DNA of 64,000 nt from Gemmatimonadales bacterium (GCA_050733215.1 JBOHSN010000007.1:3034-67033); one strand, 5' to 3'. Counted from the stretch's first letter, positions 1,640-63,156 are shown. The notes: a model not told the origin generated them from the letters alone. Program-made: numbers and translations.

Positions 1640-1865
1640 CGCTGAAACCGGAGGCCACGCAGCGGCCAACGACGAGACCAACAAAAGGCCCACGGTTGTT
1701 CACGTGGGCATGCCCCTCCTGCGTGGCTTGTACCAGCACTCTCCTGATCCAGAGAGGCCATTCTAGCCCGCCGAATTCCGGCAATTTGTCACACTTACGC
1801 GAGTTCGTGTCCCCCGCTGCCGGAGTTTGTTGCTTACATGTTGGACTTTGCTGTGCGTCCGCCGC
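1640..1865 (-). repeat. tRNA-Gln-like repeat unit A: diverged core 1711-1754, hairpin+T-run 1688-1709, conserved arm 1755-~1865
   Basis: Core keeps CTCTGGATCAGGAGAGT and AGGAGGGGCA, but the T arm is degenerate. The low-coordinate flank (hairpin GCCCACG..CGTGGGC + TTTTGTTGG, then GGCCGCTGCGTGGCC) is shared with the copy at 47286-47347. The arm aligns with copies B and E. Confidence 0.7.
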
Positions 1866-1933
1866 TCAAATGCCGAGGTCTGATTGCATGTCAGTGCCCC
1901 GCGGCGATCGTTACCTCTGCGTGCGCCGAGCGC

Positions 1934-2932
1934 CTATTTACGAGTCCAGAGCGTGGCGTGCTGCCCACTCTCCCCCACGATCTCGCCGCGTGGGTTGATG
2001 CCCCAGGCTATGCAGCAGCTGCTGCCGCTCAGCGTACCCAGATCCGTCATGACGCCACTGACCCAGACGAACGGGTGCTGCTGCCCCTCGGTCGTTTCGC
2101 TATACCCCACGACCACCCCCGCGTGGTTGATGCCTGTGGCGATGCTGAAGCTGCCGCCCAGCGTGCCCAGATCGGTCATCACGCCCTTCGACCAAAGAAA
2201 GGCGTGGGACTGCCCTTTGGCTGTCAGGCTCTCGCCCACAACGTCTCCACGGGGGTTGATACCCCAGGCCCTACTGAAGCCGCCGCCTAGCGTGCCCAGA
2301 TCCGTAATGACCCCCTTCTCCCAAACAATGGCATGGGTCTCACCCACTGCCGTCTCGCTGGAGCCTGCGATCTGTCCTGCGGGATTGATGCTCGGTGCTC
2401 CCAGCGCCCCCAGATCGGTCATGACACCTTTCTGCCAGAGAAAGGTGTGTCCCGGGCCAGTCGGCGTCCCGCTAAAGCCCACCACCTGGCCCGCGGGGTT
2501 GATGTCATTTGCTTCACTGGAAGTCCCGCCGAGGGTGCCGAGGTCTATCATGACCCCTTCCGACCAGAGAAAGGCGTGGAGCAGCCCTCCGGCGGTGAGG
2601 CTCTGGCCGACGACGTCTCCCCGGGGGTTAATGCTCCAGGCTTCGCTGTCGCCGCCGCCGAGGGTGCCCAGGTCGATCATGGTCTCCTTCGACCAGAGAA
2701 AGGCGTGCCGCTGCCCGCCCGTGGTCTCGCTCCAGCCCACGATCACCCCAGCAGGGTTGATGCGTCGAGCGAGGCTGGAGCTACCGCCGAGCGTACCCAG
2801 GTCCACCGCGGTATACGCCCCGGCGGCCTTGGCGAGGGTCGGACTGCCGGGCTCGGTCGGGGTTGGCTCGGAGGAGGTGCACGCCAGTAGCGCCAGCGCC
2901 AGGCTGGCGGAGAGTCCAGTCCGTGATCGCAT
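1934..2932 (-). CDS. HAF-family extracellular repeat lipoprotein
   Basis: About seven ~42-aa tandem repeats (HAFLWskGVMtDLGTLGG...A.gINp.G.VVG.S). Lipoprotein-type signal MRSRTGLSASLALALLAC. A TTG at 2992 would add 20 aa. Confidence 0.85.
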   Translation of the reverse strand: MRSRTGLSASLALALLACTSSEPTPTEPGSPTLAKAAGAYTAVDLGTLGGSSSLARRINPAGVIVGWSETTGGQRHAFLWSKETMIDLGTLGGGDSEAWSINPRGDVVGQSLTAGGLLHAFLWSEGVMIDLGTLGGTSSEANDINPAGQVVGFSGTPTGPGHTFLWQKGVMTDLGALGAPSINPAGQIAGSSETAVGETHAIVWEKGVITDLGTLGGGFSRAWGINPRGDVVGESLTAKGQSHAFLWSKGVMTDLGTLGGSFSIATGINHAGVVVGYSETTEGQQHPFVWVSGVMTDLGTLSGSSCCIAWGINPRGEIVGESGQHATLWTRK

Positions 2933-3126
2933 GGGATCCCATTCCTGCCGATCCGCGAGCGGGCTCGGATCAGGCGATGGGAGGAACCCCAAACACGCCG
3001 CCCACGTGCGAGCCCTGAAAGGGGCTGCTGGGCTGCCGGCGTGACGAACCGCGACGATGCAAGGGGCCGCGTTGCATCTGCCGGCCCATCTTCAGTAATA
3101 TGACGACCGGCGTCGCAAATGTGGAT

Positions 3127-3312
3127 GGCGCCGCATCGGATTTGCCGATGCGGCGCTTTCAATTGCCCTCCTGGGCTCGAACCAGGACTCTCCTGATCCA
3201 GAGGGGCCACAGTAAGCAGCTGAATGCCAGCAACTTGCAATCATACACTCGAGCTCTTGTCACCCGCTGCTGGAGTTTTGCTGGTTTCATGCGGACTCTT
3301 GCTGTACCCCAA
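3127..3312 (-). repeat. tRNA-Gln-like repeat unit B: core 3164-3203, arm 3204-~3312, 12-bp perfect hairpin 3127-3156
   Basis: Core matches the consensus with a 1-nt deletion in the acceptor strand. The arm aligns with unit A over ~110 nt (e.g. GTCACCCGCTGCTGGAGTTTTGCTGG vs GTCCCCCGCTGCCGGAGTTTGTTGC). Confidence 0.75.
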
Positions 3313-3685
3313 AACGGCCGCTCGTGGACCAGGGGACAGTCGAGCGGCTCCTGGCCGTCGCCCCCGGGGTGCACGCGTTCCTCGCTGCGACGATCCACAT
3401 CACGGTGACCAGGCGCCGTCGGCGTGGCGCCATTTGCCAGCTCCAACCATAGCGATCTCGATTTCGAGCGGAAGCTAGATCCGCTGGCGGGCGGCGAGCG
3501 ACAAGGCGCGGAAGACCCGCGTGGTTTCGGCGAGCACATCCCGGCATCGGCGAGCAATATCTGTTTCCGCATCCGAGGCAGCAGCGCCGCCGGGGCGAGG
3601 CGGTGACGCCGCACCTCGCGTCGTACTGGCTCACGCGGGCCTACCTTCGCTCCCTCCGAGGTTGCTGTCCAACGTGCAACGCCGG

Positions 3686-4882: not shown

Positions 4883-4884
4883 AA

Positions 4885-5040: not shown

Positions 5041-5042
5041 CA

Positions 5043-6986: not shown

Positions 6987-6993
6987 GGCCGCC

Positions 6994-9595: not shown

Positions 9596-10009
9596 TCAGG
9601 CCTTCAAGGTCACCGACTCGAGTGCGAGTTCCGATACCCGAGCGAACTCCCGCCTGTTCGTGCTCATGATCGTCAGGGAATGCGCCAGGGCGGTGGCCGC
9701 GATCCAGAGGTCGTGAGCCCCGATTAAGCGCCCCACCGCCTCCAGATCCGCCCAGAGCTTGGCGTGAACCCGAGCAGTCGTCAGATCGAGCTCGAGAATC
9801 GGAAAGGCCGCGAGCACCGCCTCCACAAAGGCGGAGCGGGTGAGGCGCCGCCTGGGAGTATCGGCGCGGTGAACACCGTGGAGCAACTCGCTCGCCGTGA
9901 TGGTGGAGAGATAGGTCAGGTCGAGCCGTCCCGCCGTGACCGCGCCCAGGTCGAGCTGGCCCCGCTCGGCCGCGATGATGATGGAGCTGTCGAGGAGAAT
10001 GCCGCTCAC
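9596..10009 (-). CDS. vapC: PIN-domain toxin VapC
   Basis: 137 aa. LLDSSIIIAAERG N-terminus and DLWIAATALAHSLTIMSTNRREF C-terminus. 4-nt overlap with the antitoxin gene. Confidence 0.9.
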   Translation of the reverse strand: MSGILLDSSIIIAAERGQLDLGAVTAGRLDLTYLSTITASELLHGVHRADTPRRRLTRSAFVEAVLAAFPILELDLTTARVHAKLWADLEAVGRLIGAHDLWIAATALAHSLTIMSTNRREFARVSELALESVTLKA

Positions 10010-10284
10010 CGCGCCCAGGGGTCGCGGATCGGCTGAGCGTCGAGCGCCGCGCGGCCCGACTCGACATCTGCCTCGAAGGCCGCGGCGTCATCAGGATCGA
10101 GATGAGGGAAGGAGGCAAAAAGGGCGGGCAAGTCCGCTAGTGGCACGCCAGTATTTACCGGGCGCAATTCGGCCACGGGGCGGTTTCCCCGAAGGAGCAC
10201 GTATCGCTCCCGCCGGAACAGAACCCGATTGATGTAGTCCGAGAAGTGCCGAGCCACTTCGGTCACAGTGCGGGAGATCGGCAT
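10006..10284 (-). CDS. vapB: Phd/YefM-type antitoxin (VapB)
   Basis: 92 aa. N-terminus ISRTVTEVARHFSDYINRV...VLLRGNRPVAELRP is typical of Phd/YefM antitoxins. Confidence 0.85.
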   Translation of the reverse strand: MPISRTVTEVARHFSDYINRVLFRRERYVLLRGNRPVAELRPVNTGVPLADLPALFASFPHLDPDDAAAFEADVESGRAALDAQPIRDPWAR

Positions 10285-17116: not shown

Positions 17117-17129
17117 GTCGCCGCTGGCG

Positions 17130-21348: not shown

Positions 21349-21350
21349 GC

Positions 21351-47620: not shown

Positions 47621-47636
47621 TATGATGATCATCATA
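47621..47636. promoter_or_regulatory. Candidate TetR operator
   Basis: Perfect 16-bp palindrome TATGATGATCATCATA abutting the tetR ATG. Confidence 0.6.
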
Positions 47637-48229: not shown

Positions 48230-48270
48230 TACCCCCATGGAACGGTGCCGAGGTTGCGTTTGTTTAGAAA

Positions 48271-48286
48271 TATGATGCTCATCATA
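48271..48286. promoter_or_regulatory. Second candidate TetR operator
   Basis: TATGATGCTCATCATA (15/16 palindromic) upstream of the SDR gene, also followed directly by an ATG. Confidence 0.55.
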
Positions 48287-48327
48287 TGCGGGCACAGGAA
48301 TTAACCTCAACGGAAAGGGAGCACGGT

Positions 48328-49155: not shown

Positions 49156-49317
49156 GTCAGATTGACGGAGGTGGGCCCTGGGCCGCTGGAGCCGCTTGCC
49201 AGCGGCCATGCGTGGGTTAGGCATCTTACGACGCGCTCGCGCGAAGCTATTGCGCGGCCTGCACCCGAGTGGAATACTGCGCACTAGTCACACTCCCATC
49301 GCGAGCGCCTAGCCACC

Positions 49318-49839: not shown

Positions 49840-50821
49840 GTACGTCAGGGCCGCCGACGTCGGGCAGGCAGTCGCCCTGGTGAGCGCCGACCGCGACGCC
49901 GCGTACCTCGCCGGCGGGACGACGCAGCTCGATCTCATGAAGGACGGCGTGCTCGCGCCCGAGCGTCTGGTCGACATCTCCCGCCTGTCGCTGCGCGGCG
50001 TGGCGTCGAGAGGGGAGGCGGTGGTCATCGGCGCGATGACGACGATGGAGGAGGCGGCGACCGACCCGACGATCGCCGAGCGGCTCCCGCTCGTGCGGGA
50101 GGCGCTGCTGCTCAGCGCCTCCGTGCAGCTCCGCAACATGGCGACGATGGGCGGCAACCTCCTGCAGCGCACGCGCTGCCGCTACTTCCGCGATCCCACA
50201 GTCTCGTGTAACCGGCGGCTGCGGGGCTCGGGGTGTAGCGCGCTCGCGGGCCATCACCGGATGCACGCCATCCTCGGCACCAGCGACCACTGCATCGCGA
50301 CCCATGCCTCGGATGTCGCGGTCGCGCTCGTGGCCCTGGATGCCGTCGTGCGCACGACCGGACCCGGGGGCGAGCGTCAAATCCCGCTAACGCAACTGCA
50401 TCTGCCGCCGGGCGAGACGCCGGACGTCGAGACGGTCCTCGCGCACGGTGAGCTGATCACCGGGATCGAGGTCCCGCTGCCGCCCCGCGGCGCGCGCTCG
50501 GGCTACCTCAAGGTGCGCGACCGCGCCTCCTATGAGTTCGCGCTGGCGTCGGCCGCGGTCGTGCTGGTGATGGACCAGGGCGTGATCGTTGACGCCCGTG
50601 TGGGCCTGGGCGGGGTCGCCACGGTCCCGTGGCGGGCCGTCGCGGCGGAGCGGGTGCTGCGTGGGGCGGCGACGACGACGGACGTCTTTCGCACCGCCGC
50701 CGAGGCGGCGCTCGAGGGAGCGGTGGCGCGTCGCGACAACGCCTTCAAGATCGAGCTGGCCAAACGCACGCTCGTGCGCGAGCTGTCGATCCTCGCGGAG
50801 GCACGCGATGTCGAGTCCTGA
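49826..50821 (+). CDS. FAD-binding medium subunit of the molybdo-flavoenzyme
   Basis: 331 aa. AYLAGGTTQLDLMK and NMATMGGNLLQRTRC. Overlaps both neighbouring subunit genes. Confidence 0.85.
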   Translation: MRAFEYVRAADVGQAVALVSADRDAAYLAGGTTQLDLMKDGVLAPERLVDISRLSLRGVASRGEAVVIGAMTTMEEAATDPTIAERLPLVREALLLSASVQLRNMATMGGNLLQRTRCRYFRDPTVSCNRRLRGSGCSALAGHHRMHAILGTSDHCIATHASDVAVALVALDAVVRTTGPGGERQIPLTQLHLPPGETPDVETVLAHGELITGIEVPLPPRGARSGYLKVRDRASYEFALASAAVVLVMDQGVIVDARVGLGGVATVPWRAVAAERVLRGAATTTDVFRTAAEAALEGAVARRDNAFKIELAKRTLVRELSILAEARDVES

Positions 50822-53177
50822 CCGCGCCGGCGCACTCCCGCTCGTCGGGCCTTCGGAGGACCGGATCGACGGCCCCGCGAAGGTGGCCGGCGCCGCGCTG
50901 TACCCGTCCGACGTCCACCTGCCGCGTCTCGCGCACGCGGCCCTCGTCCGGAGCACCATCGCGAGTGGCCGCATCCGGCGCATCGGCACCGAAGCCGCCG
51001 GCGAGGCGTCAGGCGTGGTCGCGGTCATCACCCACACCAACGCCCCGAGGCTCGCGCGCGGACCCACCGGCCAGCGCTTCATGCGCGGGCCCGTGGGCCA
51101 GCTCGTCCTGATGACCGCGCTCCACCGCCATTCGGTCGGCCAACTGATGATGACCACGCCGTCGCCGGCGTCGCCCCTCCAGGACGATCGGATCCTGCAT
51201 TACGGCCAGCCGGTCGCGGTCGTGGTGGCGGAGTCGGGCGAGCAGGCCGTCGCCGCCGCCCGGCTCGTCGAGGTCGAGTACGACCGCGACCCGGAGCCGC
51301 CGCTGCTCGATCTCGACGATCCGCGCGCGGAGGTGCTGACCAATCCCTGGAACCTGGACATGGCGCGCGGGAACGTCGGCGCCGCGCTGGCAGCCGCCCA
51401 GGTGCGGATCGACGCCTCCTACGCCACGCCGGACGAGACCAATAATCCGCTCGGCCTCTTCGCGACTGTCGCCGCGTGGGACGGCGGCCGGCTTACGGTC
51501 CACGACACGACGCAGTGGCCGTACGGCGTCCGCGAGACGCTCGCGAGGGTCTTCGAGCTGCCCGAGGACCACGTCCGCGTGCTGGCGCCCTTCGTCGGCG
51601 GCGCATTCGGCGCGGGGCTCCGGGCGTGGCCGCACGTCATCCTCGCCGCGCTCGCGGCCCGCGTGGTGGCTCGACCGGTGAAGCTCGGGCTGACGCGGGC
51701 GGAGATGTTCACCTCCGTCGGGCACCGCCCGCGCACGCGGCAGCGCGTCAGGCTCGGCGCGACGCGCCGCGGCGAGCTGGTGGCGATCGATCACGAGGCG
51801 ACCTCCTCCACCGCCCGCGAGGACGACAACATCGAGCTCGTCGCCTTCGGCGCCGCTAAGGCGTACGCCTGTCCCAACGTCGCGACGCATGATCGACAGG
51901 TCCGGCTCCACATCCCCTGCCCGGGTTTCATGCGCGCGCCGGGGGAGGCGCAGGGCAACTTCGCCCTGGAGTCGGCGATGGACGAGCTGGCGTACGCGCT
52001 GGGCATGGATCCGCTCGAGCTGCGCATGCGCAATGACGCCGCGGTGGAGCCGCAGAGCGGTCTGCCCTGGTCGAGCCGGGCGCTGCACGAGTGCTACCGG
52101 CAGGGCGCCGAGCGGTTCGGCTGGTCGGAGAGGAGCGCTGAGCCGCGCTCGATGCGCTACGGGCGCATGCTTGTCGGTTTCGGCATGGCGGAAGTGGCCT
52201 TCCAGTTCTTCCAGGCCCCGTGCGCGGCACGCGCGTCGATCGACCGGGACGGGCACGCGTACGTGCGCAGCGCCGCCACTGACATCGGCACGGGGACGCG
52301 CACCGTGATGACGCGGTTGAGCGCGGACCTCCTTGGCCTGTCGGTGGGGCGGGTCCGCTTCGAGCTGGGCGACACGGACCTGCCGATGGCGCCGTGGGCG
52401 GGGGGCTCCGGCCTCACCGCCGCGCTCGGCTCCGCGGTGCATGGGGCCTGCGGGCGCCTTGTGCAGCGCTTCCTCGACGTGGTGAAGGACGACGACGGCT
52501 CGCCGCTGAAGGGCTGCACCCTCGAGCAGGTCACCACCACCGGCGGCCGCATCGTGCGCGCCGAGGATCCCGCGCGGGGCGAGACATACACGGACATCCT
52601 CGCGCGGCACGGGCTCGAGGGGTTGAGCGCGGACGGCGAGAGCGGCACGCCCGCCGCAATGCTCGTGCAGGGGATCGTGTCCTCCGCGGCACGATTTGGC
52701 CGCCTCGTGCCGGCGGTCGCGCGGAAGATCGGCGCGCACGCGCCTGCCCCCGCTTTCGCCGTCAAGTTCGTGGAAGTGCACGTCGATCCCGATCTCGGCA
52801 CGGTGCGCGTGGCACGCGTCCTCTCGGCGATCGACGCGGGGCGCATCCTCAACGAGAAGCTGGCGCGGAGTCAGATCGTCGGCGGCACGGTGGGCGGCAT
52901 CGGGATGGCGCTGCTCGAGGAGACGCTCACGGACCCGGGCACCGGCCGCATCGCCAACGCGACCCTCGGAGACTACCTCATCCCGGTCAACGCCGACGTG
53001 CCCGAGATGGACGTCCTCTTCGTCGGCGAGCCGGATCCCATGACACCCATCGGGACGAAGGGGGTGGGCGAGATCGGGCTCGTGGGCATCGCCGCCGCCA
53101 TCGCCAACGCAGTCTTCCATGCGACGGGGCGGCGCGTACGCTCGCTACCCATTGGGCTGGAGCAGATCCTTCCGTGA
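50808..53177 (+). CDS. Molybdopterin-binding large subunit of the molybdo-flavoenzyme
   Basis: ATG at 50808 (789 aa). RIDGPAKVAGAALY N-terminus, GGAFG, GTKGVGEIGLVG near the C-terminus. Confidence 0.85.
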   Translation: MSSPDRAGALPLVGPSEDRIDGPAKVAGAALYPSDVHLPRLAHAALVRSTIASGRIRRIGTEAAGEASGVVAVITHTNAPRLARGPTGQRFMRGPVGQLVLMTALHRHSVGQLMMTTPSPASPLQDDRILHYGQPVAVVVAESGEQAVAAARLVEVEYDRDPEPPLLDLDDPRAEVLTNPWNLDMARGNVGAALAAAQVRIDASYATPDETNNPLGLFATVAAWDGGRLTVHDTTQWPYGVRETLARVFELPEDHVRVLAPFVGGAFGAGLRAWPHVILAALAARVVARPVKLGLTRAEMFTSVGHRPRTRQRVRLGATRRGELVAIDHEATSSTAREDDNIELVAFGAAKAYACPNVATHDRQVRLHIPCPGFMRAPGEAQGNFALESAMDELAYALGMDPLELRMRNDAAVEPQSGLPWSSRALHECYRQGAERFGWSERSAEPRSMRYGRMLVGFGMAEVAFQFFQAPCAARASIDRDGHAYVRSAATDIGTGTRTVMTRLSADLLGLSVGRVRFELGDTDLPMAPWAGGSGLTAALGSAVHGACGRLVQRFLDVVKDDDGSPLKGCTLEQVTTTGGRIVRAEDPARGETYTDILARHGLEGLSADGESGTPAAMLVQGIVSSAARFGRLVPAVARKIGAHAPAPAFAVKFVEVHVDPDLGTVRVARVLSAIDAGRILNEKLARSQIVGGTVGGIGMALLEETLTDPGTGRIANATLGDYLIPVNADVPEMDVLFVGEPDPMTPIGTKGVGEIGLVGIAAAIANAVFHATGRRVRSLPIGLEQILP

Positions 53178-53436
53178 CGAACCGCGCACCCAAACCGCCT
53201 TGGCCGACGGTTCGCACCCGGTCTTCGAGCAGAGCGTCGACGTCAACGCGTGACTGCGGTTGCGACCCGGCCGCTCAGCGACACCATGGATGACGCCGGG
53301 CGGATGCGCGGCTCATGCTTTTCCCGGATCCCGAGCATGGCTCGCATTTCCAGTTTCCGGAAGAGTGTGCCGAAGCGGCCGCCCGCTTCCTCGCCGCTGA
53401 CTGACTGATCTTCGATCAGCCGTCGCAAGCGATAGC

Positions 53437-54831
53437 ATGGACCCTCGCACACGCGCACTCCTCGAAGCGCCGATCGCCACGACGCTGCTCCGGCTTGCCG
53501 CGCCGAACGTGCTGGTGATGGTCGTGCAGGCGGCCGTTGGCCTCGTTGAAACCTATTTCATCGGCAAACTCGGCACCGATGCGCTCGCCGGCGTTGCGCT
53601 GGTGTTCCCCGTCGTGATGTTGATGCAAATGATGTCCGCTGGCGCCATGGGCGGCGGCATCACCTCGGCCATTGCGCGCGCCTTGGGCGGCGGGCGGCGC
53701 GGCGAAGCCGATGACCTCGCGCTGCACGCGCTCGTGATCGCGCTCGTCTTCGGGATTGGGTTCATGCTCGGCGTGCTGGGCGGGGGTCGCGCGCTCTACC
53801 AGGCGATGGGCGGTGCCGGGCGTGCTCTTGATGCCGCGTTGGCGTACTCGAACCTGGTATTCGCCGGCGCGGTGGTCGTCTGGCTGTTCAACTCCCTCGC
53901 CGCCGTCATCCGTGGCACCGGCAACATAGCGCTTCCGGCGGCAGTGATCTGCGTGGGTGCTCTGATCGCGATTCCCATGTCGCCGGCGCTCATCTTCGGT
54001 TGGGGACCTTTTCCGAAGCTCGGGATCGCGGGCGGTGCGGCCGCGCTCGTCTCCTATTACGCATTGGGAAGCGCCGCGCTCGCGGCTTATCTCTGGTCGG
54101 GAAGGAGCATGCTGCGACCGTCGCTGCGCGCAGTGCGCTTTCGCTGGCCACTCTTTCGCGACATCCTGCGCGTCGGCGCCATGGCGGCGCTGGTCACGGT
54201 GTCCACCAATCTCACGATCATGATCGGCACCTCGCTCGCCGGCCATTTCGGGCCGGCTGCGATCGCCGGCTATGGCACGGGCGCGCGCCTCGAATATTTG
54301 CTCGTCCCGCTCGTCTTCGGGCTTGGCGCTCCTCTCGTCGCCATGGTCGGCACGAGCATCGGAGCGGGTATGCGCGACCGCGCGCTGCGTACAGCATGGA
54401 TAGGCGCCGCCATCGCCACGGCGCTGACGGAAGCGATCGGTCTCGCAGCAGCAGCGTTTCCGGCGGCCTGGCTCTCTCTTTTCGATACGAACCCGGCCAT
54501 GCTTGACGTGGGATCGCGCTACCTGCGCGTCGTGGGCCCGTTCTACGGGCTGCTGGGACTCGCGCTTGCGCTGTATTTCGCTTCGCAAGGCGCCGGCCGA
54601 TTACTGTGGCCTTTGATCGCCAACCTGACGCGGCTCGCGATCGCAGCCCTCATCGGCTGGCTCGCGCTGCGTTGGAGCGGGAACCTGTCGCACGTATTCG
54701 CCGCGCAGAGTCTGGCGCTCGTCGCGTTCGGACTCATCAATGCCGCGGCAGTCGCCGGCGGAGCCTGGTTCGGTCGGCTACCCTGGCCGTGGAGCGCGGC
54801 CGCCATGCTGCAAAGGAGATCGCCAACGTGA
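53437..54831 (+). CDS. MATE-family efflux transporter
   Basis: 464 aa, ~12 hydrophobic segments. N-terminal LLRLAAPNVLVMVVQAAVGLVETYFIG. Confidence 0.85.
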   Translation: MDPRTRALLEAPIATTLLRLAAPNVLVMVVQAAVGLVETYFIGKLGTDALAGVALVFPVVMLMQMMSAGAMGGGITSAIARALGGGRRGEADDLALHALVIALVFGIGFMLGVLGGGRALYQAMGGAGRALDAALAYSNLVFAGAVVVWLFNSLAAVIRGTGNIALPAAVICVGALIAIPMSPALIFGWGPFPKLGIAGGAAALVSYYALGSAALAAYLWSGRSMLRPSLRAVRFRWPLFRDILRVGAMAALVTVSTNLTIMIGTSLAGHFGPAAIAGYGTGARLEYLLVPLVFGLGAPLVAMVGTSIGAGMRDRALRTAWIGAAIATALTEAIGLAAAAFPAAWLSLFDTNPAMLDVGSRYLRVVGPFYGLLGLALALYFASQGAGRLLWPLIANLTRLAIAALIGWLALRWSGNLSHVFAAQSLALVAFGLINAAAVAGGAWFGRLPWPWSAAAMLQRRSPT

Positions 54832-55277
54832 GTGGAAGATATCTCGAGGACTTCGCCGTGGGCCGGGTCTACGGCTCCGGGCGCATCAAAGTCGAAAAGG
54901 AGGGCATCAAGGCGTTTGCCGCCGAATTCGATCCGCAGCCTTTCCACCTCGACGAAGACGCCGCTCGCCGCACCATCTTCGGCGGCTTGGCCGCGAGCGG
55001 CTGGCATACCGCGGCGCTCACGATGCGCCTACTCGTCGAGAGCGAGCTCAAACCCGCCGGCGGCATCGTCGGCACCGGCTTCGACGAATTTCGGTGGCCG
55101 CTGCCGGTGCGGCCTGGCGACGAGCTGCGCGTCGAGAGCGAGGTGCTCGACGTCCGGCCCTCGACATCGCGCCCGCATCAGGGAGTGATCAAGGTGCGCA
55201 CCACGACCCGCAACCAGAAGGGCGAGGCCGTACAGGTGGCCGTCGGAAACCTCATCGTGCCCCGCCGGCAGGCCTAG
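54828..55277 (+). CDS. MaoC-like (R)-hydratase / hot-dog protein
   Basis: GTG start overlapping the MATE stop (GTGA), AAAGGAG RBS. FAAEFDPQPFHLDEDAA motif. Confidence 0.8.
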   Translation: MSGRYLEDFAVGRVYGSGRIKVEKEGIKAFAAEFDPQPFHLDEDAARRTIFGGLAASGWHTAALTMRLLVESELKPAGGIVGTGFDEFRWPLPVRPGDELRVESEVLDVRPSTSRPHQGVIKVRTTTRNQKGEAVQVAVGNLIVPRRQA

Positions 55278-55375
55278 CTTTTATGGATTCCCGGCGCCGT
55301 CAAGACAGCAGTTCGCCTCCGAAGCGCCGAATGGATGAACATGGCTGCAGAGGCTGAGATGATCGTAGCAAGGTG

Positions 55376-56030
55376 TAATGAACGCAGAGGCAATTCAATT
55401 CAAAGGACGCCATGGCTATCGGCACGGCTGGATACACGGCGATGCTGTCCGTGCTGGCGCTCGAACATGGCGGCCTCACACCGCAACGTGGTGACATCCT
55501 CGTGCCCGGCGCCAATGGCGGCGTCGGCTCCATCGCGATCGAGATCCTGTCGGATCTCGGCTATCGCGTGGTCGCGTCGACCGAACGTCTCGAGGAAAGC
55601 GACTATCTGCGCAGCCTCGGCGCGGCGGAGATCATGGAGCGCCGGACGCTTTCGGATCCGGGAGCGCCGATCGCGAGTGAAAGATGGGCCGGCGCGGTGG
55701 ACTCCGTCGGCAGTCGCACGCTGGCGAATGTATTGGCGCAGACGAAATATCGCGGCGTGGTCACAGCCTGCGGCCTGGCTCAGGGCGCGGATCTTCCTGC
55801 ATCGGTCCTGCCGTTCATTCTGCGCAACGTGACTCTTGCCGGCATCGATTCCGTCAATGCCCCGCAGGAGGCCCGCATCCAGGCATGGTCGCGACTGGCG
55901 CGTGATCTGGACTTGAGCAAGCTCGCCCGCACGACGCAAGTGGTCGGCCTCGCAGAGGTGGCCCGCCGTAGTAGGCCGGATGTTCGAAGGGAAAGTCCAG
56001 GGCCGCACAGTCGTCGACGTCAATGCGTGA
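55376..56030 (+). pseudogene. 5'-truncated, frameshifted YhdH/AcuI-type quinone (acrylyl-CoA) reductase
   Basis: Begins mid-domain at KDAMAIGTAGYTAML. The last ~17 codons (MFEGKVQGRTVVDVNA*) lie in a different frame. About 120 N-terminal codons are absent. Confidence 0.75.
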
Positions 56031-56150
56031 CTGTGTTGGGAAGGAGGGTGCGCCGGCTCTGGTGCGCCTATTGCTCCTGTGCCCACGAGCTTTCGCGGCG
56101 GAAGGCAACACTTGATTTGAGACAGGAGAGTTACATGAACACTACGACCG

Positions 56151-56723
56151 TTGCCCACCTGGGTCGATCTGGTGTTGCGGCTGAGCAAATCACCTGTCAT
56201 CAGCATTGCGTGCATCCAAGGTCGTACGCGAGGTGGAGGGAACGAGTTCACGCTCGCATGCGACCTGCGCTATGCGAGTAGCGAGAAGGCGCAGTTCGGA
56301 CAACCGGAGGTGGGCACAGGCATCCTGCCGGGTGGGGGCGGTAGCGAGAGGCTGCCACGGCTGATCGGCCGGGATCGGGCGCTGGAAGCCATTCTGAGCA
56401 GTCAGGATTACAGCGCCGATGTTGCCGAACGCTTTGGGTGGGTGACCCGTGTGCTGCCGCACCGTGAACTCGACTCCTTTGTGGAGACCCTGGCAGCCCG
56501 GCTGTGCGGTTTCGACAAGCAGGCGCTGGCCGGTGCGAAGGCCCAGGTCAACCGCGCGACGCTGCCAACTGACGCGGACTTTGTTGCCTCCTACGCCGAG
56601 TACAGCAGGTCGCTGGCGTGGCCAGGCTTCCAGGCGCGGCGTCCCAGGATCGGAAAGCTGGCCGCCGAACACGGACCGGACTTTGAGCTTCGACTCGGTC
56701 ACTATCTGAGCCTCGCAAACTAA
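56151..56723 (+). pseudogene. 5'-truncated crotonase-family gene remnant
   Basis: Starts inside the fold at ...PVISIACIQGRTRGGGNEFTLACDLRYAS. The N-terminal ~70 aa, including the first oxyanion-hole segment, are missing. Confidence 0.6.
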
Positions 56724-56779
56724 AGCGCGCTGCCCATCCCCTTGATGGCGGCCACTAGCTCTGTGGTAGTGAGGAGCTC

Positions 56780-57013
56780 GTGCGCTTAGAGGTGGGCCCA
56801 TCAATGTCCAGAGCGGCGCGCAGCGCCTCGTGCGAACGCGCAGCAGTGGCATCGCGATTGCGCGAAATCGCTTCTCTCATCGATTCTGGGATCATACGCC
56901 CAGTTGTGGATCGGGTCTTTCCATTCGAAGCGACCAAAGAGGCTTTGGTGTACGTCGAAACAGGACGTGCAAAAGGCAAGGTCATCGTCAAGGTGGGACG
57001 ACTGCAGCATTAG
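56780..57013 (+). pseudogene. C-terminal remnant of a zinc-type/quinone oxidoreductase (MDR family)
   Basis: Only the last ~45 aa are recognisable (LIDSGIIRPVVDRVFPFEATKEALVYVETGRAKGKVIVKV). Confidence 0.6.
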
Positions 57014-57338
57014 GTATTCGAGACGGCGCAAGAGCGAGCGCCGGCCAAGCTGCGCGCCGAGGGACTGAAGTGGGTTCTGGGCAGTATGCCGATCGCAGTG
57101 AAGCGGGAAGACGATGCCTCGACAGCTTCCTTGGACAGTAGCCACGGCCCTTGAACGCATGAACCTGAACCGCCGTCAGCTCATTACCAGCACGCCGATG
57201 AGGCCGCGATGCTGAAAGTGATGGAGTCGCCGGTCCGGCTGGTGAGCCATCGCGCGAACGGCGCACTGGAGAAACGGTAGCAGTGGGCGCAGAAATGAGC
57301 AGGCCCGACACCACCGAAGTAGCGTTGGGCCTTCGAGT

Positions 57339-57445
57339 TGCCCCTCCTGGGCTCGACCAGGACTCTCCTGATCCAGAGGGGCGGCTGCAATCACGTGAAC
57401 TCCACCAACTTGCAGCCATTCACGCGAGTTGGCGGAGACGCCGGC
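57339..57445 (-). repeat. tRNA-Gln-like repeat E: core 57339-57378 + arm
   Basis: Core with a 1-nt deletion in the T loop. The arm shares CAACTTGCA..CA.TCACGCGAG with units A and B. Lies ~110 nt downstream of the stop of the SDR gene at 57489. Confidence 0.8.
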
Positions 57446-57488
57446 GTCTTTCTACTCCACAGTCGCAGCCGTAGCGCCGGCTCGCACG

Positions 57489-58382
57489 CTAGTGTTCTTG
57501 GTCTGTCGCGGTCGTGAGGGAGGTCACTGGTCGGACGGTCTGCCCGGGGGGCTGTACGCGGAGCCGTTGCAGCGGTGCCCGCGTGAGCTCATCGCTCAGC
57601 GTCCGCAACCGCCGTCTCGCGGCTGGATCGTCCGCCTGCTGGAGAGGTCGAGCGGGGCGGTCACCGTCGTAGTAGCGGCCGGTAATCCCGCTGACCAGAC
57701 TCTCCCTCAACAGCCCTACCACCGCGGCGGCGCCGGCGCTCGCCGACCCCCGAGGGCTCACCTCCGACTCACGCACCATCTTGGTGTCGAGAAAGGTTCC
57801 CGGGTGGAGAGCGTTGCACGCGATCTCGGGAAATTCTTCCGCGAGATCGAAGGTGAGCATGATGAGCGCCAGCTTGCTCTGGCGGTACGCCCGCCACCCA
57901 TCGTACGCCCCCGTCAGCATCGGATCCCTGAAGTCGATCGCCGCCTGTCCCGCGGAGGCGACATTGATGATCGCGCGGCTGGGGCGTCCATACCCGAGGA
58001 GCTGGCGTGTCAGCAGAAACGGCGCGAGATAATTGACCGCGAACCGCAGCTCGTATCCGTCCCAGCTCAGTTCGCGTCTGCCGGTGGGCGGGCCCGCTCC
58101 AATGCCGGCATTGTTGATCAGCACGTCCAGCCTGGGAGCTCGTTCCGCCACCTCGCGCGCCAGGCCTGCCGTCTGCTCCAGCGACGCCAGATCGGCCACG
58201 AATCCCTCCACCTCCCCGCCGCCGTCGCGCAGCTCGCGGACCACCTGGCCGACCTTCGCCGGGTTGCGCCCGTGGACCAGCACGCCGGCCCCTTCCCCGG
58301 TCAAGAGGCGGGCGGTGGCCAGCCCGATGCCGTCGGTCGCTCCGGTCACCAGGACCACGAGGTTTCGCAGCACGGACGTCAT
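57489..58382 (-). CDS. Short-chain dehydrogenase/reductase
   Basis: 297 aa. VTGATDGIG, NNAG, YRQSKLA. Confidence 0.85.
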   Translation of the reverse strand: MTSVLRNLVVLVTGATDGIGLATARLLTGEGAGVLVHGRNPAKVGQVVRELRDGGGEVEGFVADLASLEQTAGLAREVAERAPRLDVLINNAGIGAGPPTGRRELSWDGYELRFAVNYLAPFLLTRQLLGYGRPSRAIINVASAGQAAIDFRDPMLTGAYDGWRAYRQSKLALIMLTFDLAEEFPEIACNALHPGTFLDTKMVRESEVSPRGSASAGAAAVVGLLRESLVSGITGRYYDGDRPARPLQQADDPAARRRLRTLSDELTRAPLQRLRVQPPGQTVRPVTSLTTATDQEH

Positions 58383-58389
58383 CGGAATC

Positions 58390-59514
58390 TCAGGCCTCGG
58401 CTTCCTGCTCGAGCGACGCCATATCGATGACGAACCGGTACTTCACGTCGCTTCTCAGCATTCGCTCGTAGGCCTGGTTGATCTGCTGCATCGGGATCAC
58501 CTCCACCTCCGAAACGATGCCGTGCTCGGCGCAGAAATCGAGCATCTCCTGGGTCTCTTGGATCCCGCCGATGATCGAGCCGGCCAACCGGCGGCGCTTG
58601 AACAGGAGACTGGTGAAGTTGGTGGCCGGATGGGGGCGGTCTGGCGCGCCGACCAGGCAAAGGGTGCCGTCGCGCTTGAGCAGTCCCAGATACGCGTCGA
58701 GATCGTGCGGGACGGCCAGCGTATCCAGGATGAAGTCGAGTCCGTTGGCGTGCTTCCGTATTTCATCGGGGTTCTTGGACACGACCACTTCGTCGGCTCC
58801 GAGGCGCTTGGCGTCCGCCGTCTTGCCCGGCGAGGTCGTGAACAGCACCACGTGGGCGCCGAAGGCGTGAGCGAACTGCAAGCCCATGTGGCCCAGGCCG
58901 CCCAGTCCGACGATGCCGACCCTGGAGCCTGCGCCGACGTTCCAGTGGCGGAGCGGCGAGTAGGTCGTAATCCCGGCGCAGAGGAGCGGCGCGGCTCCGG
59001 CCGGGTGGAGCTCTTCCGGCAGCCGGAGCACGAAGCGCTCGTCCACCACGATTCGGTTGGAATACCCGCCGTAGGTCACCGTTCCGGTATGCTTGTCCGG
59101 GCTGTTGTAGGTGAAAGTGATCTCGTTCTGGCAGTACTGTTCCAGCCCGGCGCGACACTCGGCGCACACGCCGCACGCGTCCACCATGCAACCGACGGCG
59201 GCCAGCTCTCCCTCGCGGAATCCCTTCACCTGTTCGCCGACCTGCACCACCCGCCCGACAATCTCGTGGCCGGACACCACTGGATAGATGGTGCGGTTCC
59301 AGTCGCTCCACTCGCTACGGACCGTGTGCAAGTCCGAGTGACAAACCCCGCAGTAGAGGATCTCGATCGCCACGTCTCGCGGGCCTGGCGACCGCCGGTC
59401 GCCGGGCCTCCGGCGTGAAGAGGTCGCGGCGCTGGCCGGCGTCAGCACCGAGTGGTACACCTGGCTGGAGCAGGCCCGCGATGTCCACCCGTCTCCCGAG
59501 ACGCTGCGGCGCAT
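58390..59514 (-). CDS. Zn-dependent NAD(P) alcohol dehydrogenase (YahK/cinnamyl-ADH type) with a non-homologous N-terminus
   Basis: From PGPRDVAIEILYCGVCHSDLH onward it is collinear with YahK-type ADHs. The first ~46 codons of the ORF are antisense to regulator coding sequence and replace the usual ~20-aa N-terminus. May be a pseudogene. Confidence 0.6.
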   Translation of the reverse strand: MRRSVSGDGWTSRACSSQVYHSVLTPASAATSSRRRPGDRRSPGPRDVAIEILYCGVCHSDLHTVRSEWSDWNRTIYPVVSGHEIVGRVVQVGEQVKGFREGELAAVGCMVDACGVCAECRAGLEQYCQNEITFTYNSPDKHTGTVTYGGYSNRIVVDERFVLRLPEELHPAGAAPLLCAGITTYSPLRHWNVGAGSRVGIVGLGGLGHMGLQFAHAFGAHVVLFTTSPGKTADAKRLGADEVVVSKNPDEIRKHANGLDFILDTLAVPHDLDAYLGLLKRDGTLCLVGAPDRPHPATNFTSLLFKRRRLAGSIIGGIQETQEMLDFCAEHGIVSEVEVIPMQQINQAYERMLRSDVKYRFVIDMASLEQEAEA

Positions 59515-60172
59515 CGCGGGCGCGCTGCGGCTCGAGCCGGGAGAGTCCCAGCATCTGCTGACCCTGGCGGGCTACGGGGTCACGGAGTACGGGAACGGCG
59601 CGTCCCGTCCGGGCGCGGTCAGTGACCGACTCCAACGCCTGCTGGATCACCTGGGGATTTGCCCGGCCTGGGTCTACGGCGAGCGCTGGGACATCGTGGC
59701 CTGGAACGAGGCCGCAACCGTGATCCACGGCGACCTCGCCGCGATGCAGGGGATCGAGCGGAATGCACTGTACCAGCTCTATCTGGACCCGCGGAAGCAG
59801 CGGATGCTGGTAGACTGGGAGCTCCATGCGCGGGACTGCGTGGCGAAGCTCCGGGCGGCATACGCCCGCAATGTGGACGACCCCTGGTTCAACGAGCTCG
59901 TCGACCTGCTGCGTGCCCGGAGCGGCGAATTCGCCGAATGGTGGAGCCAGCACGACGTGCAGCTCGTCCAGGACGGTGTGAAGTGCTATGACCATCCGGA
60001 GGTGGGCCGCCTGTCCTTCGACTACACGGTCCTGGACCTGGCCGACGAGCGGTCGGCCTCGCTCCATCTTGTCACCTACCTGCCGGCGCCGGGGACGGAC
60101 ACGCGGGAGAAGATGGAAAGGTTGCTGGCCGCCGCAGGTATCGAGGCCTCGGGTCTGACGGCGACCGTCTGA
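59357..60172 (+). pseudogene. 5'-truncated MmyB-like XRE-family regulator
   Basis: In-frame ...PGLRREEVAALAGVSTEWYTWLEQARDVHPSPETL... (second half of the HTH) plus the ligand-binding domain. No ATG, GTG or TTG lies between the upstream stop (59354) and 59696. Confidence 0.7.
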
Positions 60173-60188
60173 CGTCCCGGACACCAGC

Positions 60189-60330
60189 ATGCCCGTCGGC
60201 ATTCTGGGGTTCGGGGGCGATGGGTGGCAAACTCGGGACACTCTTCGCCCGCGGTCATGAGGTGGTATTCAGCTATTCGCGCAACGGGGAGAGCTGAAGA
60301 AGCTCGCGCAAAACGCTCATGGGAACGCGC
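60189..60330 (+). pseudogene. Frameshifted N-terminal fragment of an NADP-oxidoreductase gene
   Basis: Reads M.VGILG..G.MGGKLGTLFAR.GHEVVFSYSRNGE.LKKLA across two frames. This is an inverted paralogous copy of the N-terminus of the gene at 60473-61126. Confidence 0.65.
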
Positions 60331-60472
60331 GGGCGGGCACACCGAATGAGGCACGCGCAGGAAGCGGATGCTGGAGTTTGCTTGCGCGGATGCTGGAACC
60401 TGTCGTGTTTTGCTCAACCAGATGTCGAAGTGCGCCAATCCCCCTGAATCCGGGTAGAGACGCCGGAGCGAG

Positions 60473-61126
60473 CTATGCCCCGAACCGCTCGAAGCGGTAC
60501 GCCAGCTCGGGGCCGCCTGCCCCCTCGTACGCGAGCTGCGCGACGAGCAGGGCGAACGGCTCGGCGTACCGCGCGATCCGCAGGGGACCGGCGTCCACCG
60601 GATCGAAGCCAACGTCGCGGATCAGCGCCGCGGCCACCTCCTTTGCCTCCGCGTCGTCGCCGCAGTACACCAGGGTCGGCCGGGGGGCGCGGCCCCGGGC
60701 CTCGAACACGCCGAACAGCACCTCGCTGGGCACGGTGCCGAAAGCGGAGACGACCCTGGCGCGCGGCACCTTCCGCGCGAGCTTCTCCGCCCCCGAGGAG
60801 GTCCGGCCAACGACGAACTCAGTGTCGTCCTCGTTCATCGGCAGCGAGCAGCTCACGAGCACTTTGCCCGACACGTCGCCGGCCTGCCGCAGCACGTCGT
60901 CCATCTTGGACCAGTGCACGGCGAGCAGGAGCGCGTCCGCGTCCCGCACGGCCTCGCCCGGGGTGCCGGCCCGAGCCTTGCCTCCGGCGTCCCGCGCCAG
61001 CTCCTCCAGCTTCTTCCGGCGGCGTGAGTAGCTGAAGACCACCTCGTGCCCGGCGCGCGCGAAAAGCGTCCCGAGCTTGCCGCCCATCAGCCCCGAGCCC
61101 AGATTGCCAATTCGCATGCTCCTCAT
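60473..61126 (-). CDS. NADP oxidoreductase, F420-dependent-reductase (NpdG)-like Rossmann protein
   Basis: 217 aa. IGNLGSGLMGGKLGTLFARAGHEVVFSYSR dinucleotide-binding N-terminus. Confidence 0.75.
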   Translation of the reverse strand: MRSMRIGNLGSGLMGGKLGTLFARAGHEVVFSYSRRRKKLEELARDAGGKARAGTPGEAVRDADALLLAVHWSKMDDVLRQAGDVSGKVLVSCSLPMNEDDTEFVVGRTSSGAEKLARKVPRARVVSAFGTVPSEVLFGVFEARGRAPRPTLVYCGDDAEAKEVAAALIRDVGFDPVDAGPLRIARYAEPFALLVAQLAYEGAGGPELAYRFERFGA

Positions 61127-61259
61127 CCCTCCTCGACATGACCACCGCAGCTTAAGCGCGATTGGCTAACCAGGTAGGCCAGAATCTCACCCCGGCCCAG
61201 CGGATGCGCGGGCTGGCTGTTAGCGCGCCTCGAGCTGGGCTCGGCCATCCGGGCCTGTT

Positions 61260-62735
61260 CTATGGATTAGTCCGATTTGGTTTGCGGCGAGGGCGCATGC
61301 TGGCGGCATACAGGTCGCGAAGGGTCCAGAGGACGACGGGGTGACCTGAGCTGAGCGCGTTGGCCTCGAACCCCGACACAAACCCACCAGCTGCCACATA
61401 GAGCAGTGGAGCCTCGGGCCGCAGGGCTGCGTGTGCCCATTTCACGCCGGCAGCCGCTAATCGTTCGAGCGTCGTGAGGTGGTCACGGTGGACATCCAGC
61501 GGAATGGGACGCCGATTCCACTTAATGGCTCCGGTGAGCACGCCGCCGTCACTCAGCACGCTCGCGATGTCGATCTCCAGCGAACGACCCTCACGATCGG
61601 CGCCCTCCCAGCGACTCCACTCGCTGACCATTGGAAGACGATACCGGTCGCGCAGACGAGAGTACGCCTGCTCTACCATGCGCTCGAAGACGTGGCCCAT
61701 GTAGGTATCCAGACGCGGTAGCACCTGCTCGGTCCACACGGCCTTCGGGCTGTAACGAGCCAGTTCGGCCTCGAATGGGGCGACGAAGGTTGTGTGGAAC
61801 ATCTGGGCAGGGTCAGCCAGCCGATAGCGGTAGGGCTCTTTGGGCTTGGCGCCCAAATTCCGATGCGCCTCCACGTACCCAAGAGCGATGAGTCGATCAA
61901 CCTTTTGCCGTAAGGCGGTGTCGGTCGCCATCCCAGCCCGCTGGCCGATCTCGTTGAGCTCGGTCCGGCCATCCGCAATCGCCCTGAGCACGGCGTGGTA
62001 GCTCGCCACATCGCGCAATCCTTGCTCCTGTAGGAGCGCGGTCTCGACTTGGGCGCGGACCTCGCCACGCGGGTGCAGGAAGGTGTCGGCCACATTCTGG
62101 GCGAGCGACCGGCCGGGGCGCACGGCCGCGAGGTACCGCGGAATGCCGCCGAATACCCCGTAGGCAGCGGCGCGATCGCGGAGCGAGCGGAAGCTGGCCA
62201 TCTCGCCGGCGTGGAAGTAATCGAAGGGGCGGAGTTCGGTCCGCCAGTGGAACCGGCCATAGAGGGGAGCGGCACCCGCGTCCAATGCCTCCATTGTGCG
62301 GGTGGCCGAACCGGAGAGGGCCAGCACCAGAGGCCGGGCCGGGCGACGCTGCTCCCAGACGGCGTTGAGCTCCGAGGCGACACCAGCCAAGTCCTGCTCC
62401 GACTCGCCGAGGTACTGGAACTCGTCCAGGACGACGGCGAGCGGGGCCGGCGCTTGCAGTTCGAGCAACAGCCGGAACGCCGTCCGCCAGGTAGGATAGT
62501 CCTCCGGGTTCAGCGCCTGGTCGCTCCACCGGGCCACCTCCGCCACGAGGGCCAGTCGGTTCTGGGCCGGCGTGGTATTCGCCGCTGTGAAGTAGAACGT
62601 ATTGGCAGTCGGCCAGACGTTGGTCAGGAGGTAGGTCTTCCCTACGCGCCGCCGGCCGTAGAGCAGCACAAGGCGTGGCTCTCCGGCTTCAAGAAATGCC
62701 CCGAGTTCTGCCCGTTCCCGATCCCGATCGATCAT
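61260..62735 (-). CDS. AAA-type ATPase with C-terminal DUF234-like domain (archaeal-ATPase family)
   Basis: Start taken at MIDRDRERAEL (track ORF starts at 62768). Walker A GRRRVGKT and Walker B VVLDEFQ. The central region looks winged-helix-like. Confidence 0.75.
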   Translation of the reverse strand: MIDRDRERAELGAFLEAGEPRLVLLYGRRRVGKTYLLTNVWPTANTFYFTAANTTPAQNRLALVAEVARWSDQALNPEDYPTWRTAFRLLLELQAPAPLAVVLDEFQYLGESEQDLAGVASELNAVWEQRRPARPLVLALSGSATRTMEALDAGAAPLYGRFHWRTELRPFDYFHAGEMASFRSLRDRAAAYGVFGGIPRYLAAVRPGRSLAQNVADTFLHPRGEVRAQVETALLQEQGLRDVASYHAVLRAIADGRTELNEIGQRAGMATDTALRQKVDRLIALGYVEAHRNLGAKPKEPYRYRLADPAQMFHTTFVAPFEAELARYSPKAVWTEQVLPRLDTYMGHVFERMVEQAYSRLRDRYRLPMVSEWSRWEGADREGRSLEIDIASVLSDGGVLTGAIKWNRRPIPLDVHRDHLTTLERLAAAGVKWAHAALRPEAPLLYVAAGGFVSGFEANALSSGHPVVLWTLRDLYAASMRPRRKPNRTNP

Positions 62736-62765
62736 GAGGCCTGCCATTACAAGTATGGTTGAATA

Positions 62766-62793
62766 CAAGTATAATTGTATACAATCGTACTTG
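62766..62793. promoter_or_regulatory. AT-rich near-palindrome upstream of the ATPase gene
   Basis: CAAGTATAATTGTA|TACAATCGTACTTG (12/14 arm match) plus direct repeat TACAAGTAT at 62748 and 62764. Strikingly AT-rich for this window. Confidence 0.5.
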
Positions 62794-63129
62794 CAATGCC
62801 AGGCCGTCTACCTGGCGCGGGCCCGCCGAATCGGAGTAGGCTGCCGCGAGCGCTAGCGGACAGCCGTCTCGCCCACGCGTTTAGACGCGCGTGGGCGACG
62901 GAGCGGAAGGATCTCCCCTTGAAGGAGTCGCCGCGGCCGGTGGGTGGCGCGACACCACCACGCTGCTCCGTTATCCGCAACCCGATCCCCACACGATGCG
63001 GGCGGTCGTTGATTTCGAGACTCCCGTGCCGAAGTCCCATCGGGTTGTGAGTAACTCACTCAGTTACTGACTCACCCCTCGCAAATAGGCGAAGGCCGTC
63101 AGCCGGATAATCGGCTGCCGCCCTTGAAA

Positions 63130-63156
63130 TGCCCCTCCTGGGCTCGATCCGGAGGC
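63130..63156 (-). repeat. tRNA-like repeat F (T-loop-to-3'-end type)
   Basis: TGCCCCTCCTGGGCTCGA matches the core. It continues as TCCGGAGG like the fragment at 47263-47290, then diverges. Confidence 0.65.

Follow-up and report, generated by a model that had tools for sequence, protein, structure and literature searches.

A probable decayed array of integrative elements targeting tRNA-Gln(CUG) in a Gemmatimonadales genome

Introduction

Members of the phylum Gemmatimonadota abound in soils. Few of the species have been cultured, and hardly any mobile elements have been described from them. Here, we describe a stretch of 64,000 nucleotides (nt) from a Gemmatimonadales bacterium (GCA_050733215.1, JBOHSN010000007.1:3034-67033), hereafter referred to as the window, in which gene modules of unrelated function are interspersed with short pieces of the 3' part of a gene for tRNA-Gln(CUG). 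Judging from its sequence, the window is probably what remains of a tandem accretion of integrative elements that targeted this tRNA gene and later decayed. Such an array of islands is supported by the complete elements present in related genomes, by the homology of several window flanks to the right-hand attachment site (attR) arms of those elements, by the remnants of integrase genes that the window still holds, and by an asymmetry in the sequences found on both sides of the tRNA pieces.

tRNA-Gln copies in the window

The repeated sequence is best represented by the 41-mer CTCTGGATCAGGAGAGTCCTGGTTCGAGCCCAGGAGGGGCA, which has two exact matches on the minus strand, at 31649-31689 and 47350-47390 (0 chance matches expected), and one match with a 1-nt deletion at 3163-3203, on the same strand (again with an expectation of 0). 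Its last 18 bases, TCGAGCCCAGGAGGGGCA, are found at 57339-57356 and 63130-63147 (expectation 0.01) and, with two mismatches, at 47264-47281, and three further pieces were recognized by direct reading at 57339-57378, 1711-1754 and 32593-32606. Altogether, the window contains eight pieces, and all eight lie on the minus strand and are co-oriented.

Following the numbering of the tRNA, four of these pieces are versions of positions 32-72. The most distal one, at 1711-1754, has diverged by four substitutions and a 3-nt insertion (nhmmer with a tRNA profile, E=2e-4), and would represent an attR-type scar. The copy at 3163-3203 carries its deletion in the acceptor strand, the one at 31649-31689 is exact and begins about 20 nt past the stop codon of a cupin gene, and the one at 57339-57378 has a 1-nt deletion in the T loop. 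The copy at 47350-47392 is also exact, spans positions 30-72 and is followed by a terminator typical of the native tRNA-Gln. Two T-loop-class copies, limited to positions 55-72, are followed by a hairpin and then by sequence resembling an integrase 3' tail (47264-47281) or by an integrase remnant (63130-63147). The last piece, at 32593-32606, comprises only positions 60-73 (14-16 nt), lies 3' of an aminotransferase gene and is followed by a 9-bp GC hairpin. According to folding, a strong hairpin comes after seven of the eight copies.

No intact tRNA was detected in the window by ARAGORN or by Rfam, either at gathering scores or at E<=10, and the 5' half of the tRNA-Gln gene is absent from it at up to three mismatches. 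Rfam was also searched for a known RNA family or a tRNA pseudogene call that could account for the copies, and returned nothing relevant for the whole window or for the flanking arms alone. The initial annotation, made from the sequence alone, had counted at least seven same-orientation fragments, all of them 3' fragments, with no intact tRNA in 64 kb, and these statements hold. It had also placed a 41-nt core at 47350, which is exact as far as it goes; the match to the tRNA actually extends over 43 nt, from position 30.

Taken on its own, such a set of copies, short, numerous, close to gene ends and with hairpins behind them, in a window with no intact tRNA or integrase, could suggest a tRNA-derived dispersed repeat of the repetitive extragenic palindrome (REP), miniature inverted-repeat transposable element (MITE) or short interspersed element (SINE) type, spread by transposition or replication slippage and unrelated to integration. 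Neither terminal inverted repeats nor target duplications were seen, and the related genomes described below make this explanation very improbable.

The tRNA-Gln(CUG) locus in related genomes

One genome per species was scanned for the last 24 bases of the 41-mer, which resulted in at least 119 stretches (referred to below as loci, with an L number). All 80 printed locus titles belong to Gemmatimonadota, including Gemmatimonadales and Longimicrobiales. In most of the loci listed, the 24-mer belongs to an intact tRNA-Gln(CUG) gene, TGCCCCTTGGTGTAACTGGCAACACGCCTGACTCTGGATCAGGAGAGTCCTGGTTCGAGCCCAGGAGGGGCAA, of which it makes up the 3' end and which is usually located beside tRNA-Ala(CGC). The layout of this gene is TGCCCCT..CCTGA-CTCTGGA-TCAGG-AGAGT-CCTGG-TTCGAGC-CCAGG-AGGGGCA-A, and the 41-mer of the window is identical to its positions 32-72. 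Every detail of the way in which the initial annotation had parsed the core as a tRNA, including the CCUGA strand, the UGCCCCU 5' end and the U1:A72 pair that the fragments themselves lack, is found in this intact gene.

Full genes account for 85 of the 177 matches in the loci listed and the window, and the intact gene is present in 85 of the 119 loci listed, corresponding to 85 species of Gemmatimonadota. The partial copies start at discrete places. In the anticodon loop, 27 begin at position 32 and seven at position 30; the T-loop starts, at positions 55-56, number 21. The crossover positions suggested in the initial annotation, at the anticodon loop or the T loop, correspond to real start classes, around 32 and around 55, throughout the phylum. 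Polarity is equally strict: 88 of the 90 copies in multi-copy sources are co-oriented, and wherever a genome locus contains an intact tRNA as well as partial copies (17 loci), the copies are located on the 3' side of the tRNA. Arrays consisting of the tRNA gene followed by one copy after another are common among the loci (for instance, L101, L025, L068 and L018). Both the polarity and the discrete starts speak against a dispersed repeat.

The DNA on the two sides of the tRNA also differs in conservation. The 5' side is syntenic between species: of 70 segments measuring 2 kb or more, 62 find a partner of at least 1 kb in some other species. The 3' side is not: partners of that length exist for 17 of 47 first units and for eight of 46 later units. 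Between relatives, gene content is variable on the 3' side of the tRNA.

The cargo of the units in these loci is diverse and comprises one to three genes, and the units longer than 300 nt have a median of 2.4 kb, a value biased downward by loci of at most 8 kb. A mini-unit of 64-144 nt was also recognized, in which a terminator hairpin and a short GC hairpin precede a terminal T-loop copy of 18 nt. This mini-unit occurs 23 times in the loci, directly after an intact tRNA or a 41-nt copy (for example, L001 4912-4997, L025 5798-5939, and 47264-47392 in the window), and may be the relic of an old T-loop-class insertion, inherited or carried along.

Two observations concern the surroundings of the tRNA gene itself. 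A Gemmatimonadaceae metagenome-assembled genome (MAG) has 21 tRNA genes within 2.3 kb, tRNA-Gln(CUG) among them (L037, 5429-7758). In ten other loci (L012, L013, L020, L023, L039, L041, L051, L057, L123 and L125), tRNA-Ala(CGC) and tRNA-Gln(CUG) are not adjacent but separated by 1.6-6.5 kb, and this separation raises the possibility of a second insertion site, at the 3' end of tRNA-Ala. The DNA between both genes in L123 encodes a Cache-domain protein, 71% identical to an open reading frame (ORF) of the window at 30567-30959.

Integrases, complete elements and remnants

The integrases were approached with phmmer, using as a seed a sequence of Escherichia coli XerD, which found only a P4-like integrase in L034. 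The main family was reached through a weak second hit of this L034 integrase, a 410-residue ORF located immediately 3' of the tRNA-Gln of L026. The proteins of this family carry the Pfam domain PF00589, and no fewer than 343 homologues were counted at E<=1e-10.

In six contexts (L026 and L120-L125), an intact integrase gene is convergent with an intact tRNA-Gln, 41-98 nt from the 3' end of the latter, with a GC hairpin between the two. Complete elements have a constant order: tRNA-Gln and the integrase come first, then the cargo, and finally a conserved arm and a 41-nt copy that starts at position 32. Two distinct complete elements were found in three loci, one of 9.46 kb (the same element in L123 and L124) and another one of 10.4 kb (L125), and their cargo is defence-like, with HEPN_AbiU2, STAND ATPase, SLFN_AlbA_2 and DUF4209 proteins. 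Judging from this structure, the PF00589 family would exchange strands in the anticodon loop and leave the 41-nt repeat behind.

Fragments of the L026-type integrase are present in 11 other loci and in two places in the window. The first one, at 62859-63043 (plus strand), is a frameshifted C-terminal remnant covering profile positions 327-389 (hmmsearch independent E values of 5e-15 and 3.9e-7; 70-77% identity by tblastn). The H-x-x-R motif and the catalytic-tyrosine region are both part of this remnant, which is convergent with the copy at 63130, as in the intact elements. The second one, at 3297-3653 (plus strand), is a pseudogene remnant in three frames covering profile positions 191-321 (independent E values of 6.8e-9, 0.044 and 5.8e-14; 38% identity to the L026 integrase by tblastn). 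It lies between a kynureninase gene and the arm of copy 3163, and both of its termini, together with the core copy that adjoined it, have been lost. A weak C-terminal tail was additionally detected at 57182-57253 (plus strand), at the expected place, with an independent E value of 0.74. The statement in the initial annotation that no integrase lies in the 64 kb is right for intact genes, and the remnants at 62859-63043 and 3297-3653 correct it. Integrase remnants adjoining the copies are a further point against a dispersed repeat.

The P4-like integrase of L034 (1100-2527, minus strand) is unrelated to this family and lies just upstream of a copy that begins at position 28, with a remnant of the main family just downstream. 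Its location beside a copy indicates that at least two integrase families use tRNA-Gln(CUG).

An integrase is also found beside an otherwise complete tRNA-Gln that contains an intron (L126), and introns offer another explanation for the copies, as 3' exons of a tRNA-Gln split by a group I intron. In some Gemmatimonadota, tRNA-Gln(CUG) is indeed interrupted by a group I intron of about 225 nt, which lies between nucleotides 35 and 36 of the anticodon. To our knowledge, this tRNA does not count among the classic hosts of bacterial introns. In L028 (7317-7613, minus strand), the intron matches the full RF00028 model with 35.3 bits (E=1.5e-7), below the gathering score, and the tRNA-Gln genes of L030 and L126 are split in the same way. 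In L005 (5483-5520), a partial intron and a 3' exon are found 675 nt after an intact intron-less gene. The copies of the window, however, start at position 30 or 32 instead of 36, and hold bases of the 5' exon; no 5' exon is present in the window at up to three mismatches; the arms have no match to a group I intron or a tRNA even at E<=10, and no RF00028 was found in the window; and the arms do match the attR arms of integrase elements. A related possibility is that the copies act as functional tRNA-like modules at the 3' ends of mRNAs, which would suit the gene map, where a co-oriented gene lies just upstream at five of the seven copy sites. We regard the exon and mRNA-module explanations, taken together, as the least credible ones considered here, with next to no probability.

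Arms and flanks of the copies

The sequences directly 5' of the copies, which we call P arms, are non-coding and fall into two families. The family-1 arm of copy 1711, at 1755-1901 (minus strand), was recognized with an nhmmer arm profile (E=2.4e-39), and its 23 BLAST hits are all upstream of fragments, with 0 beside an intact tRNA. The arm of copy 3163 lies at 3204-3352 (minus strand; E=6e-41) and lacks its distal part, and all of its 20 BLAST hits are also upstream of fragments, as are all 11 hits of the arm of copy 57339, at 57379-57516 (minus strand; E=2.5e-29). All three are homologues of the attR arms that the complete elements of L123 and L125 carry, a relationship hard to reconcile with a dispersed repeat. 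A fourth family-1 sequence, the orphan distal half of an arm without core, was detected at 60353-60452 (minus strand; nhmmer E=3e-6, profile positions 11-87), and would mark one more lost boundary. Family 2 is the arm of the position-30 copies, represented in the window by 47393-47513 (minus strand), which shows 76-85% identity by BLAST to the arms of L073, L084 and L068.

Conservation of the family-1 arm rises toward the core. The arm contains repeated GCAAA(C/G)TCC-like motifs, which we consider putative arm-type binding sites. Across some 20 species, the P arm is about 80-86% identical, which is as high as the neighbouring coding DNA, with the motifs arranged in blocks.

The flanks on the other side of the copies, of P' type, behave differently. 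Behind copy 1711, a terminator-like hairpin at 1642-1710 (minus strand), recognized by folding, resembles the sequence that follows the intact tRNA-Gln elsewhere, and all four of its BLAST hits are immediately 3' of an intact tRNA-Gln. Behind copy 57339, the flank at 57182-57338, with its hairpin at 57270-57338, has a match in the sequence that comes directly behind the intact tRNA-Gln in L049. The downstream flank of copy 47350 matches nine sites beside intact tRNAs. A narrow motif for the integrase-tail part of the P' flank was enriched, yet it occurs in only about 13% of the copies and is not general.

When the window flanks are considered together, the upstream arms give 87 BLAST hits upstream of fragments and 0 beside intact tRNAs, whereas the downstream flanks match 15 sites after intact tRNAs and 22 after fragments. 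An asymmetry of this kind between the left-hand attachment site (attL) and attR is what the accretion model would predict. It supports accretion, since the arms are found only at partial copies and the flank now behind a copy would once have been behind an intact tRNA. The initial annotation had left the dispersed repeat only as an alternative, and it is indeed disfavoured by the polarity of the copies, their start positions, the arm homology and the integrase remnants.

The bases just 5' of the core are usually GGCCCC, both in the window (3204-3209 and 57379-57384) and in the family-1 arms of the loci. Together with the first bases of the core, they form GCCCCT, complementary to the acceptor 3' strand AGGGGC, and a mini-helix of acceptor and T arm could form within a single strand. 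A constraint to maintain this mini-helix received no support, with variants such as GGCGCC and CCCGC breaking the pairing.

Proposed mechanism of accretion

From the structure of the elements, phylum-specific tyrosine integrases would use the anticodon stem-loop of tRNA-Gln(CUG) as their chromosomal attachment site. The incoming element would bring a replacement for tRNA positions 32-72, so that the tRNA would be intact after the insertion, and the displaced original 3' part would end up at the far end of the element, behind a P arm of about 170 nt. Each later insertion would then push the older elements and their 41-nt copies further away from the tRNA. The 18-nt T-loop copies would reflect a second crossover site, and possibly a second type of integrase. 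Over time, integrase genes would have been deleted or frameshifted, with cargo and trapped genes remaining in place, and the GC hairpin supplied by each element next to the tRNA would now be the one behind each copy. In this scheme, the position of strand exchange, the binding of the arm sites by the integrase, the order of the events, and the entry of each large module as cargo are inferred. A phage origin of the elements was considered and is unsupported, with the 41-mer present in no viral contig searched.

Several results weigh against this reading. Pfam scans of the predicted window genes returned no intact integrase or other recombinase, and no integrase tied to the T-loop class was found. 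Among the related loci, 25 of the 32 units longer than 300 nt have no trace of an integrase, and the loci themselves, selected by the 24-mer and each of at most 8 kb, are a biased sample in which short units are favoured. An intact tRNA-Gln is missing from the window and from the next 3,061 nt, which carry xthA, a glyoxalase gene and psuG. The modules are not set apart by GC content (0.65-0.69) or by GC content at third codon positions, and copy 31649 has neither arm matches by BLAST nor a hairpin (z=+0.2). Finally, the TetR-to-ECH module (TetR-SDR-molybdenum cofactor dehydrogenase-MATE, 47393-57338) is inverted with respect to L074, L066, L068 and L025.

Simple decay of autonomous elements may not explain all of the integrase-less units. 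Those with conserved arms would be either the product of fast decay with persisting arms, or non-autonomous cassettes moved in trans. Under the second possibility, which would refine the accretion model and which we hold as tentative and clearly the less likely one, many units would never have been autonomous, and integrase-less cassettes consisting of P' flank, cargo, P arm and 41-nt core would be excised and re-inserted in trans by an integrase with its gene at another place, in a way comparable to cis-mobilisable elements and, loosely, to integron cassettes, with the tRNA-Gln locus as the cassette platform. The share of units without integrase trace given above would fit this idea, together with their short length and their cargo of one to three genes. 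So would the high identity of a non-coding arm, with conserved motif blocks, in so many species, and the presence of the same cassette at different array positions between species, as observed for AraC-AKR (L009 and L061), TetR-SDR (L066, L074 and L068), a multicopper oxidase (L101 and L125), and HAF (the window and L025). However, excision products and empty sites were not seen, loci of 8 kb are biased towards short units, vertical descent with new upstream insertions can explain the shared cassettes, and decay does occur, as the integrase remnants with ragged end points illustrate. In its broadest form, with tRNA-Gln(CUG) as a phylum-wide cassette platform where a dedicated integrase family shuffles small integrase-less units in trans, we consider the proposal somewhat more doubtful still.

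Gene modules and the head of the array

Returning to accretion with decay as the preferred explanation, several modules of the window recur at this hotspot in other species, at other positions of the array. The HAF gene is found between the tRNA and a copy in L025, with 80% amino-acid identity to the HAF of the window. The TetR-SDR module comes directly after the intact tRNA in L074 and L066, between two copies in L068, and also in L025. The aminotransferase module is the third case: the segment 32647-37293 is 92% identical to L050, from the MAG of a closely related Gemmatimonadales bacterium. In L050, a 50-nt copy that begins at position 23 comes after the aminotransferase gene, then a terminator and then a T-loop copy, and the similarity to the window ends exactly at the copy. 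As for the inverted TetR-to-ECH module, similarity to the other loci sets in near 47592, some 45 nt before the TetR start, a point that would be the inversion breakpoint, and a truncated enoyl-CoA hydratase gene (about 56310-56723, 137 amino acids) is located at its other end. Homologues of the ATPase gene, in three loci representing two contexts, have no tRNA copies and no synteny around them, and are uninformative. The initial annotation had taken the copies as delimiting gene modules in an array of islands, and the array is supported by the complete elements, the arm homology, the remnants and the arm test; the arrival of every large module as an island is putative.

The 28-kb module holds three toxin-antitoxin-like pairs, consisting of a PIN protein with Phd/YefM (9596-10284), a RES protein with an upstream ORF (16310-17756), and a HigB-like protein with a helix-turn-helix protein (20992-21644). 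A DUF7380/DUF4209 protein is encoded at 14547-16178, and GC content drops to 0.62-0.64 over 15-21 kb. Taken together, this suggests older mobile DNA nested in the module.

Regarding the head of the array, two window proteins had no exact entry on record, and a search for homologues led to a contig of the same organism, CDGWEI010000405.1 (GCA_975101735.1; L128), which is 99.98% identical to 51260-64000 and runs 3,061 nt past the right end of the window before it stops. It is the only matching contig and contains no tRNA, so that the head of the array is not seen in either sequence. A scan of metagenomes to extend past the end of the contig returned only contigs of 1-2 kb.

Comparison with known systems

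Islands inserted by tyrosine integrases that target tRNA genes are reportedly divided into anticodon-loop and T-loop classes according to the sublocation of the crossover within the tRNA. The system described here shares with these islands the replacement of the 3' part of the tRNA, the repeats that start at the anticodon or T loop, the integrase next to the tRNA, and an attachment site of the attP type with arms. It differs from them in having a target, tRNA-Gln(CUG), and an integrase family that are both restricted to Gemmatimonadota, and in that the integrases of the window are decayed and its tRNA is absent. In a literature search, neither islands at the tRNA-Gln of Gemmatimonadota nor this integrase family turned out to have been described.

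In Streptococcus, the cis-mobilisable elements (CIMEs) derived from ICESt1 and ICESt3 form tandem arrays that share their attachment (att) sites, and some of them, without recombination genes, keep functional att ends. The elements considered here would likewise form arrays with common att sites, with recombination genes lacking in some of them, but the window showed no genes for conjugation or mobilisation. The likeness to integron arrays lies in polar, small, mostly single-gene and promoter-poor units, each closed by a conserved recombination site and lined up beside a fixed platform. Contrary to integrons, there is no intI, attI, Pc or attC-type folded site, and the site is instead part of a tRNA with long arms, of the lambda type.

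The closest parallel is provided by the tycheposons of Prochlorococcus, where repeated integration at one tRNA makes new elements push older ones into the island, and where the islands, which grow by accretion, contain fragmented integrases and scattered partial tRNAs (bioRxiv 10.1101/2020.12.28.424599). This is essentially the same picture as in the window. The differences are that another phylum and other integrases are involved here, that many very small integrase-less units keep a conserved arm, and that the cargo consists of catabolic operons, toxin-antitoxin pairs and defence-like genes. In summary, the array shows the classic behaviour of tyrosine integrases that target tRNA genes, with accretion and decay; it is of a known kind and, judging from the literature search, previously undescribed in Gemmatimonadota.

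Concluding remarks

This analysis defines, for the phylum, an integration hotspot at tRNA-Gln(CUG), an integrase family, and the anatomy of an attachment site consisting of a 41-nt core, an arm of about 170 nt and a hairpin flank. With these elements at hand, islands and their cargo could be annotated automatically in hundreds of MAGs, and the data suggest a candidate integrase/att pair for the development of genetic tools in the phylum. For the window itself, accretion would explain why unrelated modules, such as the kynurenine, aminobenzoyl-CoA-type, phenylacetate and molybdenum-dehydrogenase blocks, are found side by side, and the boundaries of these modules are flagged as likely recombination points. 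The most interesting aspect is the abundance of small integrase-less units with conserved arms. If a platform for cassettes moved in trans proved to be true, it would represent a functional analogue of the integron that has a tRNA gene as its base and can capture entire catabolic operons.

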